DNA from: an uncultured virus (IMG/VR IMGVR_UViG_3300042522_000840)
Lineage: Duplodnaviria; Heunggongvirae; Uroviricota; Caudoviricetes
Strand: one strand, 5' to 3'
DNA length: 20,000 nucleotides
IMG/VR virus record: IMGVR_UViG_3300042522_000840
Shown here: one piece after another, positions 12,767 to 20,000 of the stretch
Layout: each line of letters starts with the position of its first letter
How positions within the stretch are numbered: the first letter of the stretch is position 1
Program-made: the position numbers and the translations under genes
The notes under the pieces: model-generated
Told to the model about the DNA's origin: nothing
What the model saw: the letters and a program-made list of their open reading frames with translations, nothing else
Database searches by the model: none

Positions 12767-12779
12767 AAGTTCATACGCG

Positions 12780-14015
12780 ATGAGACCTGTGATTCAACTC
12801 CGACCTCACCAGCAACGTGCTCTGGATGCCCTGCTGCAGCACCGCAAGGGGCAGGTCATTATCCCCACTGGCGGCGGTAAGACCCTTGTAATGATTTTTG
12901 ATGCTATTCGTCAGTTTTCTCAATCTCAAGCACAAACAATCGTCATTGTTTGCCCAAGAATTCTTTTGGCTGAGCAATTGTCTTCTGAGTTTTTGGAGTT
13001 TATTACCAATGCTTCTGTTGCACATTTGCACTCGGGAGAGACACATCATTTTAGCACGACTCGCCCCAATGAGATTCATAACTGGTCTCGTCGTGCTTAT
13101 AAGCATCAACTGATCTTCACTACCTATAACTCTCTGCAGCGTCTGCAGCAGGCAGACCTTAAGGTTGACACCATTTACTTTGATGAGGCACATAACAGTG
13201 TTCAACGTCACTTTTTCCCTGCTACGGAGCACTTCGCTTCTACTGCTGACCGCTGCTATTTCTTCACTGCTACTCCTAAGCATTCTGCCACTATTTCCAA
13301 ACCTGGGATGAATGATGGTGCAGTATATGGTCAGGTGATTTGTAATGTCCCTGCCCCTGAACTTGTTGAGGGTGGTTTCATTGTGCCCCCTAAGGTTGTT
13401 GTGCAGCAGTTTGAGATGTTGAGTAAGGGTCAGATTGTTGCTGATGTTGACTGTGAGAACCTGATTCAAACCATCGATGCTCAGGAGGTGGGTAAGGTTC
13501 TTATCTGCTCCAAGGCAACCAAACAGATTCAGAATCTGGTTTCTCAAACTGATTTCTGTAAGCAACTGGAAAACCGTGGATTCTCTTGGATGTATATCAC
13601 TTCCAAGACTGGTGCCGTGATCGATGGTCGTAAGGTCAATCGCGAGGTGTTCTTTGACACTCTCTCTGCCTGGGGCAAGGATGACTCTAAGAAGTTTGTT
13701 GTTCTTCATCACAGCATTCTGTCTGAAGGCATCAATGTGTCTGGTCTGGAGGCAGTTCTGTTTATGCGCTCTATGGATTACATCGGCATCTCTCAGACCA
13801 TCGGGCGGGTGATCCGTCTGCACAAGGACGACGCAGAGGGTCTCAGCAGCGGCAGGATCGCCCCTGGTGCCGTTGAAACCTACACCAAGTCCTTTGGGTT
13901 GGTCTGCATCCCTGTCTACTCTTCTGTGGGCATCAGCACCGCTAGGAAGGTGCAAGCGGTGGTGGACACCGTGTTCAACCAAGGTCAACCTGCAATCTCT
14001 GTCGTTAAGCGTTAA
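12780..14015 (+). CDS. Superfamily 2 DEAH-box helicase (ResIII/UvsW-like fold)
   Basis: LRPHQQ, IPTGGGKT, YFDEAH, FTATP, LSEGINV, QTIGRVIR. Start moved to ATG 12780 (or GTG 12789) because ATG 12741 lies upstream of the -10 box. Confidence 0.9.
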   Translation: MRPVIQLRPHQQRALDALLQHRKGQVIIPTGGGKTLVMIFDAIRQFSQSQAQTIVIVCPRILLAEQLSSEFLEFITNASVAHLHSGETHHFSTTRPNEIHNWSRRAYKHQLIFTTYNSLQRLQQADLKVDTIYFDEAHNSVQRHFFPATEHFASTADRCYFFTATPKHSATISKPGMNDGAVYGQVICNVPAPELVEGGFIVPPKVVVQQFEMLSKGQIVADVDCENLIQTIDAQEVGKVLICSKATKQIQNLVSQTDFCKQLENRGFSWMYITSKTGAVIDGRKVNREVFFDTLSAWGKDDSKKFVVLHHSILSEGINVSGLEAVLFMRSMDYIGISQTIGRVIRLHKDDAEGLSSGRIAPGAVETYTKSFGLVCIPVYSSVGISTARKVQAVVDTVFNQGQPAISVVKR

Positions 14016-14020
14016 TTCCA

Positions 14021-14164
14021 ATGAAGTACAAAGTTCAACTCTATGTCGGCGGTCAAACTTGGTGGTTTGAATGTTACGCCAATAATATTCAAGAAGCAAA
14101 GCAAGTTGCTTCTGCACAACATCCAAATGCTCGCATCATCAGTGCCACTGCTACCTTTCTATGA
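14021..14164 (+). CDS. Small hypothetical protein (47 aa; absent from ORF track)
   Basis: MKYKVQLYVGGQTWWFECYANNIQEAKQVASAQHPNARIISATATFL; starts 5 nt after the helicase stop; ATGA overlap with the next gene. Confidence 0.7.
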   Translation: MKYKVQLYVGGQTWWFECYANNIQEAKQVASAQHPNARIISATATFL

Positions 14165-14832: not shown

Positions 14833-15141
14833 ATGCTCTCTACACAATATCGCCTGCGTCTTGAAGCAATCTGTGATAGGATTGCAACAGGCGATGAGGT
14901 GAGTTTAGAAGATATGATCTGGGCAGAAAAACTTGCGAAAGCAAATCGTTCTGCCGCTACAATACTCCGTCAGGCAAGACGAAAGGCATCAAATCCCAAT
15001 ATGAAAGAAGGAAGTCTGGATGAATTTTTAAATATTATGGATTTAGGGCATCCTGACCCATCAGAGCACCGTACAAGGTTCGATGGTGCAGATGATATCG
15101 CAGATTTTTTTAGAACTGATGATGATATGAGAAGAGATTGA
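14833..15141 (+). CDS. Hypothetical protein (102 aa)
   Basis: Clean ORF preceded by ATAAATA (14805-14811). Confidence 0.75.
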   Translation: MLSTQYRLRLEAICDRIATGDEVSLEDMIWAEKLAKANRSAATILRQARRKASNPNMKEGSLDEFLNIMDLGHPDPSEHRTRFDGADDIADFFRTDDDMRRD

Positions 15142-15326
15142 TGAAACCCAATTTTCGTAAAGTTCTTGAGATGGCACTGGAAGAAGGTGTCCGATTTGGA
15201 TATGATCGTGCTCACAAACATGTAGAGAATCCACACGAAGATGCTGTGGTTGATTGTGTGGTAGATGGTGTGGTAAACTCTCTATATGAATGGTTTGACT
15301 TTGAGGACAATAATGAAACCAATTAA
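15141..15326 (+). CDS. Hypothetical protein (about 61 aa)
   Basis: TGATG overlap with the previous stop. Confidence 0.7.
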   Translation: MKPNFRKVLEMALEEGVRFGYDRAHKHVENPHEDAVVDCVVDGVVNSLYEWFDFEDNNETN

Positions 15327-15603
15327 ATTTTTTCAAGTTGCTAAATGGTCTTATCGTGAAGACTTTGGACACGAGTGGTATGTTCAATTTCTATTTACAG
15401 ACCGTTGGGCACTTCTTCAGGCATCGATTTCTTGGAATGATTATCCTGGTTGTCCATATATTCAAATCAAATCTGGAACTGGTAGTCTTTTGAGTATTAT
15501 GTTCTGGGCATATAAGTTTGGATTTGATATTGGATTTATTGAGTACACTTGGAATTGGGAACGACTGGAAGAGGTAGATGAAGAAGAAACTGAACTGGTT
15601 TGA
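15313..15603 (+). CDS. Hypothetical protein (Trp/Phe-rich, 96 aa)
   Basis: GAGGA RBS before ATG 15313. Confidence 0.7.
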   Translation: MKPIKFFQVAKWSYREDFGHEWYVQFLFTDRWALLQASISWNDYPGCPYIQIKSGTGSLLSIMFWAYKFGFDIGFIEYTWNWERLEEVDEEETELV

Positions 15604-15925
15604 GTATTATTTCGGTCACTGCCTGCAAACTGGTTGGCATGAGATTGGAAACAATTTCAAAATGTGGAAAGACCTTATCGGTGGAAATTATAAGGATTAT
15701 GCTCTACTGAAAACTGATGATCCATTTCAAGAGTGTTACGAATGGTTCTGGTGTAGCATCAATATGGATGAAACATATCCAAAAGAGTTTCTGGAATATC
15801 TGATGGAAATGTGTGATAGAATTGATAGAGGTGAAGAGAAACTAATACCGTTGACTGAAGATTTTTTTAATGACCTTAAAGACCTTGTAAAAGATGTGGA
15901 GTTAAATGATGAAGACTTTACCTGA
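15578..15925 (+). CDS. Hypothetical protein (115 aa)
   Basis: GAGG RBS; overlaps the previous gene end. Confidence 0.75.
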   Translation: MKKKLNWFEYYFGHCLQTGWHEIGNNFKMWKDLIGGNYKDYALLKTDDPFQECYEWFWCSINMDETYPKEFLEYLMEMCDRIDRGEEKLIPLTEDFFNDLKDLVKDVELNDEDFT

Positions 15926-16028
15926 TAAATAAAAATGCCTGACTTGGTGGTTCTTTTCGGGTTGGGATAAAGCACTTTCGAGTGCTTTTCCTGTATAAAT
16001 ACTAATAACCACCAAGTTAAGAGCAGTT
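15925..16028 (+). promoter_or_regulatory. Endonuclease leader cassette 1 (late promoter / antisense arm / UUCG hairpin / late promoter / target arm)
   Basis: ATAAATA 15925-15931; ACTTGGTGGTT 15942-15952 is the reverse complement of AACCACCAAGT 16007-16017; TATAAATA 15994-16001. Confidence 0.8.
15969..15989 (+). terminator. UUCG-capped hairpin with short U-tract (putative intrinsic terminator)
   Basis: AAAGCACT-TTCG-AGTGCTTT-T. Confidence 0.65.
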
Positions 16029-16796
16029 ATGGTAAATCCTAAAAGATTTTATACCTATGCGTATTTAAGAGAAGATAGGACTCCTTATTACATAGGTAAA
16101 GGTAGTGGAAGAAGATATTATAGTAGGAAAAAAACTGACATAAAACCACCTAAAGATAAATCAAGAGTAATATTATTAAAGCAAAATTTAACCGAAGAAG
16201 AAGCATTTAGACACGAAATTTATATGATTGCGATTTTTGGTAGGAAAAATTTGAAAACTGGTATTTTACTCAATAGGACTGATGGTGGGCAAGGTTCTTC
16301 AAATTTTTCTGAAGAAGCATTAAAAAAAATAAGTGAATCATCAAAAAATAGAGTTTATTCCTTAAAAACTAGAATAAAAAAAAGTAAATCTATGACTGGT
16401 AAATTTCATACGGAAGAAACTAAAAGAAAAATGAGAGAATCTAAAAAAAATATATCCAAAGAAACAAGAGAAAAAATAAGTAAATGTAGTAAGGGTAGAT
16501 TGCATACTGAAGAAACTAAAGAAAAAATAAGACAAGCAAATATTGGGAAAAAAATAAGTGAAGAAACAAAAAGAAAAATGAAAAATAAAATTTTAAGTGA
16601 AGAACATAGAAACACAATTTCAAATTTGCAGAGAAGACATTTTCTTTTTACTTCACCTAATGGAGAAATTATAGAGGAATTTACTACTTTGATGAAATTT
16701 GGTAAAAAATATGGATTAGATTCTTCTTGCCTTTCAAAAGTGTTAAGGGGAAAGTTAAAACAACATAAAGGATGGAAAGTTCGTCAAATTTTATGA
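16029..16796 (+). CDS. Free-standing GIY-YIG-type homing endonuclease with NUMOD3 repeats
   Basis: N-terminal FYTYAYLREDRTPYYIGKG...R, AF.HE..MI..FGRK...GILLN.TDGG; NUMOD3-type repeats (HTEETKRKMRES, HTEETKEKIRQA); C-terminal L.KVLRGK..QHKGW. Confidence 0.85.
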   Translation: MVNPKRFYTYAYLREDRTPYYIGKGSGRRYYSRKKTDIKPPKDKSRVILLKQNLTEEEAFRHEIYMIAIFGRKNLKTGILLNRTDGGQGSSNFSEEALKKISESSKNRVYSLKTRIKKSKSMTGKFHTEETKRKMRESKKNISKETREKISKCSKGRLHTEETKEKIRQANIGKKISEETKRKMKNKILSEEHRNTISNLQRRHFLFTSPNGEIIEEFTTLMKFGKKYGLDSSCLSKVLRGKLKQHKGWKVRQIL

Positions 16797-16802
16797 TATA
16801 AT
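16794..16802 (+). promoter_or_regulatory. Extended -10 promoter overlapping the endonuclease stop codon
   Basis: TGA-TATAAT, 22 nt before ATG 16825; no recognisable -35. Confidence 0.5.
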
Positions 16803-16824
16803 AATAGGTGTAATTTTAAAATTT

Positions 16825-17025
16825 ATGAAACCTCTTCCACCAAAACACGAACTTGATATTTTTTGGACGGTCGCAACGAGTACCAGTATCGAAACTGGCA
16901 CAAGACCCTACTACGGGTTTGCCTACCTACTGTATGATTACCTCACAGACAACCTCAAAAACAAATACGGAGTTGAACTGCGTTATGAACCTCAAAGAAA
17001 AGAAAGCACTCCTGAAGAAACTTGA
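16825..17025 (+). CDS. Hypothetical protein (66 aa)
   Basis: ORF after the putative promoter. Confidence 0.6.
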   Translation: MKPLPPKHELDIFWTVATSTSIETGTRPYYGFAYLLYDYLTDNLKNKYGVELRYEPQRKESTPEET

Positions 17026-17248
17026 GAATGCTGCCAATACCTGCTTTGACTGTGGGAAAAAGTATGGAGTATATTCTGTAGGATGCTCCTCTGTTTATGA
17101 AGCAAAATGTGGTGTATGTGGTGAAACCAAACCTATCACTGAAACAAGAGATTTTGCTTATTTCTTTCCTACCATTCGTAAACTGAAACTTGAGATTCAA
17201 AATGAGAAAAGTAACAGTCAAACCAAAGTCCAGCAAATCCAAGAATAG
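16985..17248 (+). CDS. Putative zinc-finger protein
   Basis: Start taken at ATG 16985 (MNLKEKK); CFDC...CGVC pair. Confidence 0.7.
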   Translation: MNLKEKKALLKKLENAANTCFDCGKKYGVYSVGCSSVYEAKCGVCGETKPITETRDFAYFFPTIRKLKLEIQNEKSNSQTKVQQIQE

Positions 17249-17417
17249 GTTAGCAAACATTATGGACAACAATCCTGTTTGTATTGTAGAGCAGGACACT
17301 GGTGGTGAATTATTCCTTGCTTCTGAAAATCGTAAATACTTTTTTTGGGTTAGCACTCGTACTGGCACTAACCGTTTTGGTGACAAATCTGACGCACATT
17401 GGGAGGTTATTGAATGA
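17202..17417 (+). CDS. Hypothetical protein (71 aa)
   Basis: MRKVTVKPKS...; ATGA overlap with the next gene. Confidence 0.7.
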   Translation: MRKVTVKPKSSKSKNRLANIMDNNPVCIVEQDTGGELFLASENRKYFFWVSTRTGTNRFGDKSDAHWEVIE

Positions 17418-17695
17418 GTTTTTCTAAAACTGTTTCTGTTTTTGCTGCTCTTGCAAGTATCTTTGCTGCTGGTGCTACTGGTTGGAAACTGTCAGATTCT
17501 CAAAAAGAAGTTCCTTTGAGTCCATTAGACCAAAAGGTGATGGAGTTGGAAAAGAAACTTGACCAAGCACAACAACCACAAGTTGCTCCAGAACCTGTAA
17601 TTCTTCCTACCCCCCAACCTCAACTTCCTCAAACGTCTCAAACCCCCCCACCTCAACTGCCTCCTCCTCCTGTTCCTGAAAATGTCACTCCTTGA
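17414..17695 (+). CDS. Membrane-anchored or secreted protein with coiled coil and Pro/Gln-rich tail
   Basis: Hydrophobic N-terminus VSVFAALASIFAAGA; tail TPPPQLPPPPVP. Confidence 0.7.
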   Translation: MSFSKTVSVFAALASIFAAGATGWKLSDSQKEVPLSPLDQKVMELEKKLDQAQQPQVAPEPVILPTPQPQLPQTSQTPPPQLPPPPVPENVTP

Positions 17696-17882
17696 TACTC
17701 TCAATTACCTCATACAAGACCAAGAAGGAGACCTTCAATGTTATGAATGGGACATTCGTGAAGAACTCAATCACGAAGTGAATGACCTTGATTGGTATAC
17801 TGAACAATACGACCTTACTAAACAACGAATAGAAGACCTCAAACAAATTAAAACTATGTTGGAGAACAATGAGATTTCGTAA
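17682..17882 (+). CDS. Hypothetical acidic protein (66 aa)
   Basis: Overlapping, coupled ORF. Confidence 0.7.
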   Translation: MSLLDTLNYLIQDQEGDLQCYEWDIREELNHEVNDLDWYTEQYDLTKQRIEDLKQIKTMLENNEIS

Positions 17883-18129
17883 CATAGAGTTCCGTTGGAG
17901 CACCTGTAACAACAAGTATGAACTCGTCAAGTGGTATCAATCTAATGGTTCAGGACAAGAGAACTGTTATGTGATTGCTTTCTTTGATAAAGGCAAAGAG
18001 TGTTATGATATGAGAACCATTGGTGATAGGTTCTTTGAGGATAAAGATGCATTCGTAGTGGGAAAATACGCAATTGAGTTTCTCAACGAAACTTTTGAAA
18101 TTGAAAGACAAGAAGAAGAACTTAAATAA
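17869..18129 (+). CDS. Hypothetical protein (86 aa)
   Basis: GGAG RBS before ATG 17869. Confidence 0.75.
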   Translation: MRFRNIEFRWSTCNNKYELVKWYQSNGSGQENCYVIAFFDKGKECYDMRTIGDRFFEDKDAFVVGKYAIEFLNETFEIERQEEELK

Positions 18130-18229
18130 ATAAAGATGCTTATGTGTGTCGCAACCATAGCAGAGATTGGGTGCTTTCGGGCACCTTTTCTTGTATAAAT
18201 ACTATTGCGGCACAACATAAAGCAGAACT
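18126..18229 (+). promoter_or_regulatory. Endonuclease leader cassette 2 (same architecture as 15925-16028)
   Basis: ATAAATA 18126-18132; TGCTTATGTGTGTCGCAA 18137-18154 pairs with TTGCGGCACAACATAAAGCA 18205-18224; TATAAATA 18194-18201. Confidence 0.8.
18169..18192 (+). terminator. UUCG-capped hairpin with U-rich tail (putative intrinsic terminator)
   Basis: GGGTGCT-TTCG-GGCACCT-TTTCTT. Confidence 0.7.
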
Positions 18230-18958
18230 ATGGAACTCAAAGAGTATCACTATGTTTATTATTCCTATGAGGAATGGGGTAGAGGATATTTTGGTTCAAG
18301 AACCTGTAAATGCTTACCAGAAGAAGATATAAAGTATTTTGGTTCTTTTAGTGATAAAAACTTTAAACCAACTCAAAAGATAATACTTAAGGACGATTAT
18401 AATACAAGAGAAGAAGCATATATTGATGAGATTACTTTACAAGAATACTATAAAGTAGTTGAAAATCCACACTTTGCGAATAAAGCATATCAAACTTCTT
18501 CAAAATTTCATAATGGAATGACGACAGAAAAAGCAAAAGAATTGGGAAATAAGACAAAAGAACTTGGTGTAGGTATTCATTCACTTACTTACGAACAAAG
18601 GAGTGAATATGGTAAAAAAGCAACCGAAATAGCAAAAAAACTTGGTGCTGGACTTTATGGTTTTACAAAAGAACAAAGGAGTGAAAATGGTAAAAAATCA
18701 AAAGAACTTGGTGTTGGTATTTTTTCTTATACAAAAAAACAATTGAGTGAAAATGGGTTTAATGGTGGAAAAAAAGCATATGAAATGAAAGTTGGGGTTC
18801 ACGCACTTACCAGAGAACAAATGAGTGAGAATTCTAAAAAAGTTGCCTCACAAAAATGGAAATGTCTTGAAACTGGTTTCATTTCTAATGCTGGGGCACT
18901 TGCTTGTTATCAAAGAAAAAGAGGAATAGACACTTCCAAAAGAGTAAGAATATCATAA
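18230..18958 (+). CDS. Free-standing GIY-YIG-like (Seg-type) endonuclease with C-terminal repeats
   Basis: YHYVYYSYEEWGRGYFGSR, KYFGSF, K.IL..Y.TREEAY.DE..LQ..Y.V..NP.FAN; four G.G...T.EQ.SE..KK repeats. Confidence 0.75.
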   Translation: MELKEYHYVYYSYEEWGRGYFGSRTCKCLPEEDIKYFGSFSDKNFKPTQKIILKDDYNTREEAYIDEITLQEYYKVVENPHFANKAYQTSSKFHNGMTTEKAKELGNKTKELGVGIHSLTYEQRSEYGKKATEIAKKLGAGLYGFTKEQRSENGKKSKELGVGIFSYTKKQLSENGFNGGKKAYEMKVGVHALTREQMSENSKKVASQKWKCLETGFISNAGALACYQRKRGIDTSKRVRIS

Positions 18959-18959
18959 A

Positions 18960-19015
18960 GACACTTGACGAACTGGCACAGGGGGTCTCCACAAGACCCC
19001 TTTTTGCCTTATAAT
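18960..19015 (+). promoter_or_regulatory. Putative early promoter with upstream motif and embedded terminator
   Basis: GACACTT-GACG-AACTGGCACA (18960-18980); TATAAT 19010-19015; similar to 12707-12766. Confidence 0.7.
18981..19005 (+). terminator. Intrinsic terminator after the endonuclease gene
   Basis: GGGGTCT-CCACA-AGACCCC-TTTTT. Confidence 0.7.
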
Positions 19016-19037
19016 GACTTCATAAGCAACCAAACAA

Positions 19038-19277
19038 ATGCGTATTCAACTCAAAGCAATCACAGTTACTTACACCCGAACTCTCACGGTTTCTCCCACA
19101 ACTGAAATGTTTGAGGACTGGGAGTGTTATCCAGACCAAGAAGGATTTGAGAGTTTAGTGCTTAATGAATTGTTTGATAAAATCCATTATGAGATGGGAG
19201 GACCTGCAAATCCTATGCCTTACACTAATGTAGAGCAGTTTGAAACCGTTGAGATTGATTGGGAGGATGAAGAATGA
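19038..19277 (+). CDS. Hypothetical acidic protein (79 aa)
   Basis: First ORF after the promoter; ATGA overlap with cpeT. Confidence 0.75.
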   Translation: MRIQLKAITVTYTRTLTVSPTTEMFEDWECYPDQEGFESLVLNELFDKIHYEMGGPANPMPYTNVEQFETVEIDWEDEE

Positions 19278-19732
19278 TTGAAGATTTCAAAGTAAAATTG
19301 ATTGGTAATTATTCTAACCAACAGCAAGCATTTAACAGTCCACCACTTTGGGCACATATTCATATTAAATTTGAAGAACTTCCTGACGGAATGTTATACT
19401 CAAAGAGTTGGTATGATATTGATGGGGAAGAAAAACCTTATCGGGCAACAACATTGGAATTATCCGTGTCTGGTGAGAATGTTATTATGACACCTTATAA
19501 TAATCTTACAAATACCAAATCTTGTGAGATTGTTTTTGAGTATGTAAATAACTCTTGGATTGGTATAAATGATAATTGTATCATACCCAAGAGAAATGCT
19601 TATGTCTCCACATTTTTGAAGTTTGATGGTATTAATTACTATTCCAGAGATGCTGGATATGATATAGATTCAAATGAATTTCTCTGGGGTAAAACAAAAC
19701 AAGATGGTGAATTTCACTTTATAAAACTATGA
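19274..19732 (+). CDS. cpeT: CpcT/CpeT-family phycobilin lyase-like protein
   Basis: G.YSNQQQAF..PPLWAHI, YS..WY....KPYR, C...F, SRDAGYD......WG....EFHF.K motifs; GGAGG RBS. Confidence 0.85.
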   Translation: MIEDFKVKLIGNYSNQQQAFNSPPLWAHIHIKFEELPDGMLYSKSWYDIDGEEKPYRATTLELSVSGENVIMTPYNNLTNTKSCEIVFEYVNNSWIGINDNCIIPKRNAYVSTFLKFDGINYYSRDAGYDIDSNEFLWGKTKQDGEFHFIKL

Positions 19733-19866
19733 TTTACGAAATAAAAAAACAAGCAATTGATGAATATCTTATAGACACAATTGAGGAACGACTTACTCGT
19801 ATTGAAGATAAAGTTGATTTACTCATTACTCAACTCAAAATAGAGTTTTATAAGAAAAATGACTGA
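19729..19866 (+). CDS. Small coiled-coil protein (45 aa; absent from ORF track)
   Basis: MIYEIKKQAIDEYLIDTIEERLTRIEDKVDLLITQLKIEFYKKND; ATGA overlap with cpeT. Confidence 0.6.
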   Translation: MIYEIKKQAIDEYLIDTIEERLTRIEDKVDLLITQLKIEFYKKND

Positions 19867-20000
19867 ACCACCAGATTGTTTGGGTGTTGTTGGTAAATGC
19901 ACCGATTGTGAAAATCCTGTGTTAGAATACCTGTGTAATCAATCTCTTTTGGAAGTGCGACCAGAAAGTAAAAACTTTGACTATTGGTTTTCTTGTAGTA
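19859..20000 (+). CDS. Cys-containing hypothetical protein, truncated at window end
   Basis: MTEPPDCLGVVGKCTDCENPVLEYLCNQSLLEVRPESKNFDYWFSCS..., frame open to the end. Confidence 0.6.
   Translation, partial: MTEPPDCLGVVGKCTDCENPVLEYLCNQSLLEVRPESKNFDYWFSCS

Follow-up and report, generated by a model that had tools for sequence, protein, structure and literature searches.

A mobile leader cassette with two late boxes ahead of cyanophage homing endonuclease genes, and a predicted same-strand antisense RNA

Hairpins that sequester the ribosome-binding site and are bypassed by a late promoter are described for I-TevI, I-TevII, I-TevIII and segB of T4 and for mobE of Aeh1 (PMC2988022, PMC3014915; here and below, published systems are summarised from the accessible parts of the cited texts). 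The late self-limitation of I-TevI is ascribed to protein autorepression, and the reason for the tight regulation of phage homing endonuclease genes (HEGs) is treated as an open question (PMC2988022). In the marine 'fractured genes', 5'UTR hairpins with the TATAAATA box precede GIY-YIG and Vsr-like HEGs (PMC2677866). In IS10, the loop of a short stem-loop RNA, RNA-OUT, starts to pair at the unstructured mRNA 5' end, and the ribosome site becomes blocked (PMC4737173). The antisense RNA CfrI of cyanophage S-PM2, about 225 nt long, comes from the opposite strand and spans psbA and an HEG (PMC2984593), and the type I toxin-antitoxin loci, as well as the antisense control of EcoRI and Eco29kI, use reverse or facing promoters (PMC3874152). 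A 2010 review states, in its accessible text, that T4 had yielded no functionally characterised small regulatory RNA acting in trans (PMC3014915). Finally, among the anonymous freshwater motifs of Fremin et al. 2023 are some located upstream of GIY-YIG/HNH genes, such as DNAVirus_1290 with 92 nt (PMC10690425).

The DNA considered here is a stretch of 20,000 nucleotides (the window) from a 65-kb viral contig, 29% complete, of a T4-like cyanophage. The contig contains a CpeT-like gene, and its best annotated relatives are the Synechococcus phages S-SRM01, B3 and B23. It is confirmed that region 15925–16028 represents a copy of a portable cassette placed ahead of free-standing GIY-YIG/HNH HEGs of T4-like cyanophages. 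The cassette is a variant of the known antisense and hairpin control; it is real, widespread, mobile together with the nuclease and, in such form, apparently undescribed. The layout was not found described in the literature searched, mostly open-access; the anonymous motifs of Fremin et al. 2023 may include this cassette. The accessible text of the S-SRM01 genome paper never mentions the word 'promoter' (PMC8557907).

Layout and cargo of the two cassettes in the window

From 5' to 3', the cassette consists of late box P1, the stem-loop SL1 with arm A, a terminator, a second late box (P2), arm A' and the ATG (Table 1), and copy 1 directly precedes the nuclease ATG at 16029. Apart from SL1, these elements had been proposed in a sequence-only reading of the window, and all of those lie where it had put them: ATAAATA at 15925–15931, sharing the final base of the upstream TGA, arm A, the UUCG hairpin (GCACT-TTCG-AGTGC with TTTT through 15989), the TATAAATA box, arm A' and the ATG. 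Its measurements hold as well, namely 104 nt from P1 to the ATG and 69 and 68 nt between the boxes of the two copies (in copy 2, the boxes are at 18126 and 18194, and the ATG is at 18230). The duplex of A and A' indeed has 11 Watson–Crick pairs, then G-U, A-U and three further pairs around two A bulges. Since the T4 late box occupies positions −13..−6 (PMC1524935), the predicted starts are the sixth bases after the boxes.

The whole-cassette fold has an energy of −34.1 kcal/mol (z −3.9) in copy 1 and −35.1 kcal/mol (z −4.1) in copy 2, equalled by none of 200 shuffles. The predicted small RNA of copy 1 folds at −19.0 kcal/mol as SL1 plus the terminator, and its duplex with the leader is computed at −22.0 kcal/mol. 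A simple strict terminator scan listed copy 2 (18169–18186) and missed copy 1, which has a short U-tract. There are just three exact TATAAATA boxes in the window, two of them being the P2 boxes of copies 1 and 2.

Table 1. Positions of the cassette elements, nuclease genes and mobile units in the window
Feature	Position	Strand	Basis or remark
P1, late-promoter box (GA)TAAATA	15924..15931	+	sequence; completed by insertion
Arm A	15936-15952	+	
Predicted small RNA, ~55 nt	15937..15992	+	start at 6th base past P1, end at U-tract
SL1, 5' stem-loop GCCTGA/TCGGGT	15937..15962	+	RNAalifold consensus helix of 48 cassettes; covariation counts
SL1 loop with address segment of arm A	~15943-15956	+	fold
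Intrinsic-terminator-like hairpin	15964..15992	+	TTCG loop 15977-15980, U-tract 15986-15989; folds, covarying helix
P2, perfect T4-type late box TATAAATA	15994..16001	+	sequence; predicted mRNA start 16007
Arm A', leader at the late-mRNA 5' end	16007..16025	+	includes purine-rich ribosome-site region AAGAGCAG
255-aa free-standing homing-endonuclease-like protein (copy 1)	16029..16796	+	domain, phrog and fold matches
Sigma70-like promoter TGGAAA-18-TATAAT	16773-16802	+	within 16773..16848; insert-supplied for the downstream gene
Substitute start ATG for the downstream gene	16825	+	insert-supplied
Mobile unit 1, ~920 bp	15929..16848	+	cassette, nuclease gene and new promoter/start for the downstream gene
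Cassette copy 2	18125..18229	+	address different from copy 1
P1 of copy 2	18125-18132	+	
Predicted small RNA of copy 2	18138-18192	+	
P2 of copy 2	18194-18201	+	predicted mRNA start 18207
242-aa second nuclease gene (copy 2)	18230..18958	+	N-terminal domain GIY-YIG-like
Mobile unit 2	~18129-18958	+	not in most relatives; empty junctions

Two further features of the window lie apart from the cassettes. A 57-aa ORF (1691–1864) with a match to the Phd/YefM antitoxin family is located behind an exact TATAAATA at 1669. The minus strand of 12771–14126 contains a 451-codon open frame antisense to a 424-aa helicase gene, probably a by-product of codon use.

The 255-aa protein has NUMOD3 repeats and matches the homing endonuclease family phrog_314 (E 4e-21). 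Residues 1–83 of its model match PD-T4-3 (Z 7.6), UvrC (Z 6.0) and I-TevI (Z 5.3), and the C-terminus matches an I-HmuI-like DNA-binding domain (Z 9.1). Residues Y8, Y10, Y20, Y21, G23, R29, E63 and N82 are invariant across 22 relatives; we take them to correspond to the catalytic residues of I-TevI. The Pfam GIY-YIG family does not match this protein, and a Foldseek search against the PDB gave nothing at E≤0.001. Judging from the models, with middling Z values, plus the invariant residues and the phrog_314 match, the protein is assigned to the GIY-YIG fold and is predicted to carry modular C-terminal DNA-binding units (NUMOD3, I-HmuI-like). The best fold match of the 242-aa protein is the catalytic domain of I-TevI (Z 6.8, rmsd 2.6, 76 aligned).

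In the whole family, 92 of the 104 distinct downstream proteins fall into five N-terminal classes, nine are other and three are short or broken. The cargo includes Pfam GIY-YIG, HNH_3, EndoVII-like and MobE-like HNH proteins. Some cassettes (G000:C1:354-987, that is, L257; L014; L118) stand before ORFs with NUMOD3-type or similar repeats and no recognisable nuclease domain; these may be degenerate HEGs, or DNA-binding proteins that share the cassette's control.

Insertion sites and distribution

Empty alleles of site 1 run from ...ACCTGATAA straight into the downstream gene, and the similarity of the window to them ends at 15928 and restarts at about 16849. Scored by the downstream gene, site 1 is filled in six of 45 loci and site 2 in four of 33, with clean junctions; in a set of 80 loci retrieved through the upstream gene, four have the cassette at the stop of that gene. 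The copy 1 unit is an optional element at a fixed site among the relatives. At site 1, the empty alleles listed have TGATAA-GAAAG or a similar sequence, and at site 2 GAAATAG, and P1 is absent from them; therefore P1 arrives with the insert, and its being a native promoter of the host locus is ruled out.

Unit 1 is inserted in the first codons of the downstream gene, so that the N-terminus reads MKPLPPKHE in place of MKTLPDKK. Site 2 is just upstream of a repeated early-promoter/stem-loop unit (CTTGA..AACTGGCACAGGG..hairpin..TATAAT), located at 18957–19030 right after the second nuclease gene. This unit recurs in many relatives, sometimes twice per locus.

Complete cassettes also head nuclease genes inserted against the neighbouring genes. 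The assignment of upstream orientation is ambiguous for 67 of 236 sites, and four inverted cases (L762, L763, L397, L394) were checked by ORF lists; three of them share one baseplate-region site and have three different addresses. No same-strand operon reads into the inverted cassettes.

The contig contains four copies of the cassette by pattern and five by covariance model, and the cultured phage S-SRM01 (NC_070963) contains six, with P1 boxes near 17953, 48433, 51247, 55959, 62406 and 192421. A viral pattern search that fixed only the two boxes plus ATGC and GCAG yielded 74 loci, 39 of them distinct; 37 fold A onto A' around the terminator hairpin, and two are chance matches. A metagenome scan with the boxes and a few anchor bases fixed yielded at least 122 loci, and among the matches listed both the duplex and the terminator are present in 98 of 101 distinct ones. 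Related sequences inflate all these counts, and neither the counts nor the covariation take account of the tree.

Leaders were also picked by the nuclease protein alone, as the best 80 of 617 relatives, a set hence biased toward close relatives. The covariance model matches at the gene start in 62 of these 80 loci. The 75 distinct leaders from the best 80 of 617 comprise 58 with P1, terminator and P2, one with a variant P1, four of a second leader class described below, two with the late box only and ten with none of these. By the same model, 39 of 50 records searched had matches, ten per record at most. Out of ten named phage records, B23, S-B68 and S-N03 were matched and seven were missed; phage MC09 has, by eye, a diverged form of the layout. 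The covariance-model search that the sequence-only reading had proposed strongly supports the existence of the family, its tie to GIY-YIG/HNH genes and the covariation of A with A'. That reading was to be given up if homologues lacked covariation or nuclease association, and they lack neither.

Rfam 15 had no credible match on 15000–20000 of the window or on the cassettes in 15 further loci. Three matches in a scan of prokaryotic genomes all lie on MAG contigs of 1–2 kb, which are probably stray phage DNA, and were rejected as prokaryotic cassettes. An HNH-like ORF, identified by eye (G000:C1:42719, minus strand), has late boxes and no cassette; therefore not every nuclease-like gene carries one. 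In S-SRM01, a wcaG RNA motif (L264:507-604; Rfam RF01761, 101 bits) is situated about 900 nt upstream of one cassette.

Among 77 distinct 5' halves, 62 belong to complete cassettes on their own genes. Three are orphans lacking A' and a nuclease (L353/L730, L674, L719); they consist of P1 and SL1, with or without the terminator, and the one in L353 precedes an ORF that by eye is methyltransferase-like. As small-RNA genes these three candidates out of 77 are unpersuasive and look like deletion remnants.

A second leader class occurs on the same nuclease families. Its leaders form one long stem-loop (GGGCAGC...GCGTAAGTCCC) in which an internal loop is fixed, and the upper part of the stem-loop is complementary to the leader after the TATAAATA box. 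There are 72 such loci, 45 of them distinct (L372, L396, L401, L408, L432, L443-L514), with no Rfam match. The upstream promoter is degenerate, TAAATA being present 13–16 nt upstream in 13 of 45 and a sigma70-like promoter in a few. The leader of Sf-CH5 (L265) resembles this class.

Register, stem-loop and addresses

When the 5' half of the cassette was left unconstrained, a scan yielded 41 distinct matches. TAAATA is present 62–70 nt 5' of P2 in all 36 with A/A' pairing and in none of the five unpaired ones; similarly, of 56 leaders that were chosen by protein only (best 80 of 617) and pair at long range, 53 carry P1. While P2 is a perfect TATAAATA in 71 of 77 cassettes, P1 is such in only nine. 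The base at −1 of P1 is A or C in 77 of 77, which resembles native intergenic boxes (28 of 38 on the minus strand, where most genes lie) and not in-ORF matches (six of 33).

The register of both boxes was assessed on a held-out set. Out of 88 model matches, three were unparsed and eight fell below the duplex cut-off (five probable false matches and three mis-parsed doubled boxes); the rest gave the held-out set of distinct copies outside the training set. SL1 begins to pair at the sixth base after P1 in 39 of the 47 held-out cassettes and in 43 of the 53 picked by protein (best 80 of 617), and one base later in the remaining ones. At P2, Watson–Crick complementarity is observed in 47 of 47 held-out cassettes at +6, a position not used when setting the register, and in fractions of 0.74, 0.23, 0.53, 0.15 and 0.23 at +5..+1. 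In the protein-picked set (best 80 of 617), the fractions at +6, +5 and +4 are 0.96, 0.82 and 0.29; in the training set they are 0.98 at +6 and 0.46–0.60 at +3..+5. By folding, the partners of P2 +6..+9 (mRNA bases 1–4) have a probability of 0.83–0.98 of being single-stranded in the free RNA, whereas for the partners of +11 and +12 (mRNA bases 6–7) it is only 0.20–0.25.

When applied to 48 cassettes, RNAalifold returns the local 5' helix SL1 instead of A/A', the latter being partly hidden by gap placement. SL1 covaries, with double changes at all five pairs, and the terminator helix covaries too; the second alignment used for covariation was fitted to the covariance model. Columns 16 and 17 covary with both the 3' strand of SL1 and A', and from this double covariation we conclude that two structures are under selection, SL1 competing with the cis pairing.

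The pairing stops 2–9 nt before the ATG in 53 of 54 distinct cassettes. The modelled unpaired fraction of the ribosome region is 0.64 in the late mRNA alone, 0.22 in the duplex with the small RNA and 0.22 in the read-through cis fold. The gene's strand is favoured by the folds in 52 of 54 cases and by the duplex in all 54, and reverse late boxes are seen in one of 58 cassettes; an opposite-strand antisense RNA is thereby ruled out. At least six T in 8 nt form the U-tract in 34 of 58 cassettes, and at most five in the other 24; in nearly all copies it ends 0–5 nt ahead of the P2 box.

In total, 48 distinct 7-nt addresses were found. Seventeen of them are shared by at least two protein classes, and the same address is found on both GIY-YIG and HNH/EndoVII proteins; therefore the cassette and the nuclease reassort. 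Raw duplex energies do not discriminate for copy 1: in the ranking of 95 late-box starts, both its own start and unrelated starts score −20 to −24. The net binding is −14.1 kcal/mol for cognate pairs vs −3.3 for non-cognate ones, and the cognate leader is the best one for 21 of 24 seeds. In the contig, the 12-nt seeds have one exact occurrence, with no other exact target. The addresses are mutually distinct among the four contig copies tested and among the six copies of S-SRM01. In 69 cassettes from 18 genomes, the cross-binding within genomes is slightly weaker than in permuted data (uncorrected P 0.02 for the mean and 0.04 for strong pairs), shared 6-mers are not significantly depleted (uncorrected P 0.16), and one genome holds two identical cassettes. 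These values point weakly to a separation of addresses within genomes, which is incomplete.

Readings of the cassette and comparison with known systems

With a probability of about 0.6, we favour the reading in which a free RNA of ~55 nt limits the late translation of the nuclease, with cis masking as a back-up. The activity of P1 and of the terminator, the pairing in trans and the purpose of the arrangement are what we infer. Late in infection, P2 would make translatable nuclease mRNA, and P1 at the same stage would make a separate ~55-nt RNA formed by the 5' stem-loop and the terminator. The first 4–5 bases of the mRNA would pair with the exposed loop, and the helix would zip through the SL1 stem and cover the ribosome-binding region. 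With two late promoters on one template, one making the repressor of the other's product, the nuclease output could be a pulse or stay flat while the phage DNA copy number climbs, as in the action of IS10 RNA-OUT on RNA-IN. The terminator would insulate the nuclease gene from upstream early transcription, and transcripts that read through would be masked in cis by A folding onto A', as known from T4. The address would lie in the variable pair of loop and leader, and several HEGs of one genome would be regulated mostly independently.

Both layers are most likely at work: the terminator and the cis helix acting against read-through, P2 opening the gene late, and the P1 RNA setting the limit. SL1, the register at both boxes, the presence of P1 in the insert and the inverted copies suggest the predicted free RNA, indirectly. 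Counting against it are the modest U-tracts, the equally good cis masking and the incomplete separation of addresses. As P1 is usually a poorer box than P2, it may be the less active of the two promoters, a difficulty for an antisense RNA that has to be in excess. Further, the TAA of the P1-region box doubles as the upstream stop (offset 0 in ten of 46 and offset 4 in six of 46), and thus a part of the box could be conserved for another reason. Three metatranscriptome contig sets contained only 5–7% of the words and gave little or no cover of the cassettes, which weighs on neither side.

Less probably, the cassette acts in cis only: the terminator and the A/A' hairpin silence read-through from upstream operons or from P1, P2 bypasses both, any short RNA from P1 arises incidentally, and the only role of SL1 is to protect arm A from wrong pairing before A' has been transcribed. 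Masking of this kind is established for I-TevI, I-TevII, I-TevIII, segB and Aeh1 mobE (PMC2988022). The very stable read-through fold that masks the ribosome region and the weakness of many U-tracts agree with it, and a cis helix would likewise begin near the P2 start if the late transcript contains its entire 3' arm. However, acting in cis only gives no reason for a second late box that is fixed 5 nt before SL1 and borne by the insert, nor for arm A being kept in the inverted insertions, and SL1 competes with the cis helix, yet covaries.

A free RNA could alternatively work mainly between elements, silencing same-address nucleases of a co-infecting phage or at another locus, an immunity against homing that addresses would escape by diversifying. 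The 48 distinct addresses, the weak within-genome avoidance, the cassettes kept before broken or nuclease-less ORFs (three short and several NUMOD-only out of 104) and the three orphan 5' halves with SL1 fit this. But the bulk of the 5' halves is complete on own genes, the orphans resemble deletion remnants and the avoidance signal is weak, and we regard such a role as unlikely. A broader scheme, in which we place little confidence, is a shared library of address-coded same-strand antisense RNAs, each capping own expression and silencing same-address nucleases on co-infecting genomes; the addresses would diversify, the cassettes would swap between unrelated nucleases, and the second, unrelated-fold leader class would have converged independently. 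The position of the U-tract right before P2 would suit transcriptional interference, where the P1 polymerase terminates on the P2 box and represses P2, and the complementarity is a cis layer only; this leaves the placement of the mRNA-start complement in the loop unexplained, and is improbable. In the OMEGA-type loci, a structured RNA is tightly linked to nuclease genes, and the same linkage is observed here, as would be expected of an RNA that binds the nuclease as a guide or a type III-like antitoxin. The variable segment, however, is complementary to the gene's own leader; at the two loci covered, cognate 12-mers match the empty insertion sites at 8.4 and 7.8 of 12 positions, vs 7.8–9.7 and 7.3–9.2 for the others; the same address serves unrelated folds; and the proteins carry their own DNA-binding modules. 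We therefore consider this very unlikely. The nuclease-associated RNA suggested by the sequence-only reading is not borne out either, as the same cassette heads unrelated nuclease folds and the variable segment matches its own leader rather than the insertion sites.

The favoured reading, a P1 RNA limiting the late nuclease, yields a sharply predicted small-RNA candidate (starts, ends, seed and address pairs) in a cultured phage, S-SRM01, with six copies. If true, it would explain how a genome tolerates 5–10 nuclease genes, show that late self-limitation, which in I-TevI depends on protein autorepression, can also be reached through RNA, and provide a natural stock of dozens of RNA-OUT-type antisense/leader pairs that have diverged and are mostly orthogonal.

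In comparison with the T4 hairpins, the cassette likewise precedes an HEG, has a helix over the ribosome site on long transcripts, and a TATAAATA box that yields a leader without the 5' arm; both the masking on read-through and the removal of the 5' arm by the late box are found in silico. The T4 hairpins, as described in the accessible texts, are single simple cis hairpins with one late promoter. Here, in contrast, there is no single local hairpin whose 5' arm lacks its own promoter and terminator: the 5' arm has its own late box and its own covarying stem-loop, and a terminator lies between the arms. Moreover, the cassette is portable across unrelated nucleases and has many addresses. The leaders of the 'fractured genes' are also those of environmental T4-like phage HEGs, with a hairpin of two complementary motifs and a late box; the accessible text mentions neither a second promoter nor a terminator or an antisense RNA (PMC2677866). 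CfrI resembles the predicted RNA in being a cyanomyovirus RNA thought to regulate an HEG, whereas the cassette is a small tandem module.

As in the type I loci and in EcoRI and Eco29kI, a short RNA would cover the ribosome site on the mRNA of a potentially harmful protein. The type I antitoxin of the sequence-only reading stands as an analogy only, the RNA not being from the opposite strand. In anatomy, the cassette is like IS10, with no sequence relation claimed: the mRNA of a mobile element's enzyme would be targeted, the loop would set the specificity, and, by the folds and predicted starts, the loop is complementary to the first mRNA bases, with a duplex reaching the ribosome site. RNA-OUT comes from the opposite strand, overlapping its target, and its complementarity is automatic (PMC4737173). 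In the cassette, no such overlap exists: both RNAs would be encoded on the same strand in tandem, and their complementarity needs compensatory change.
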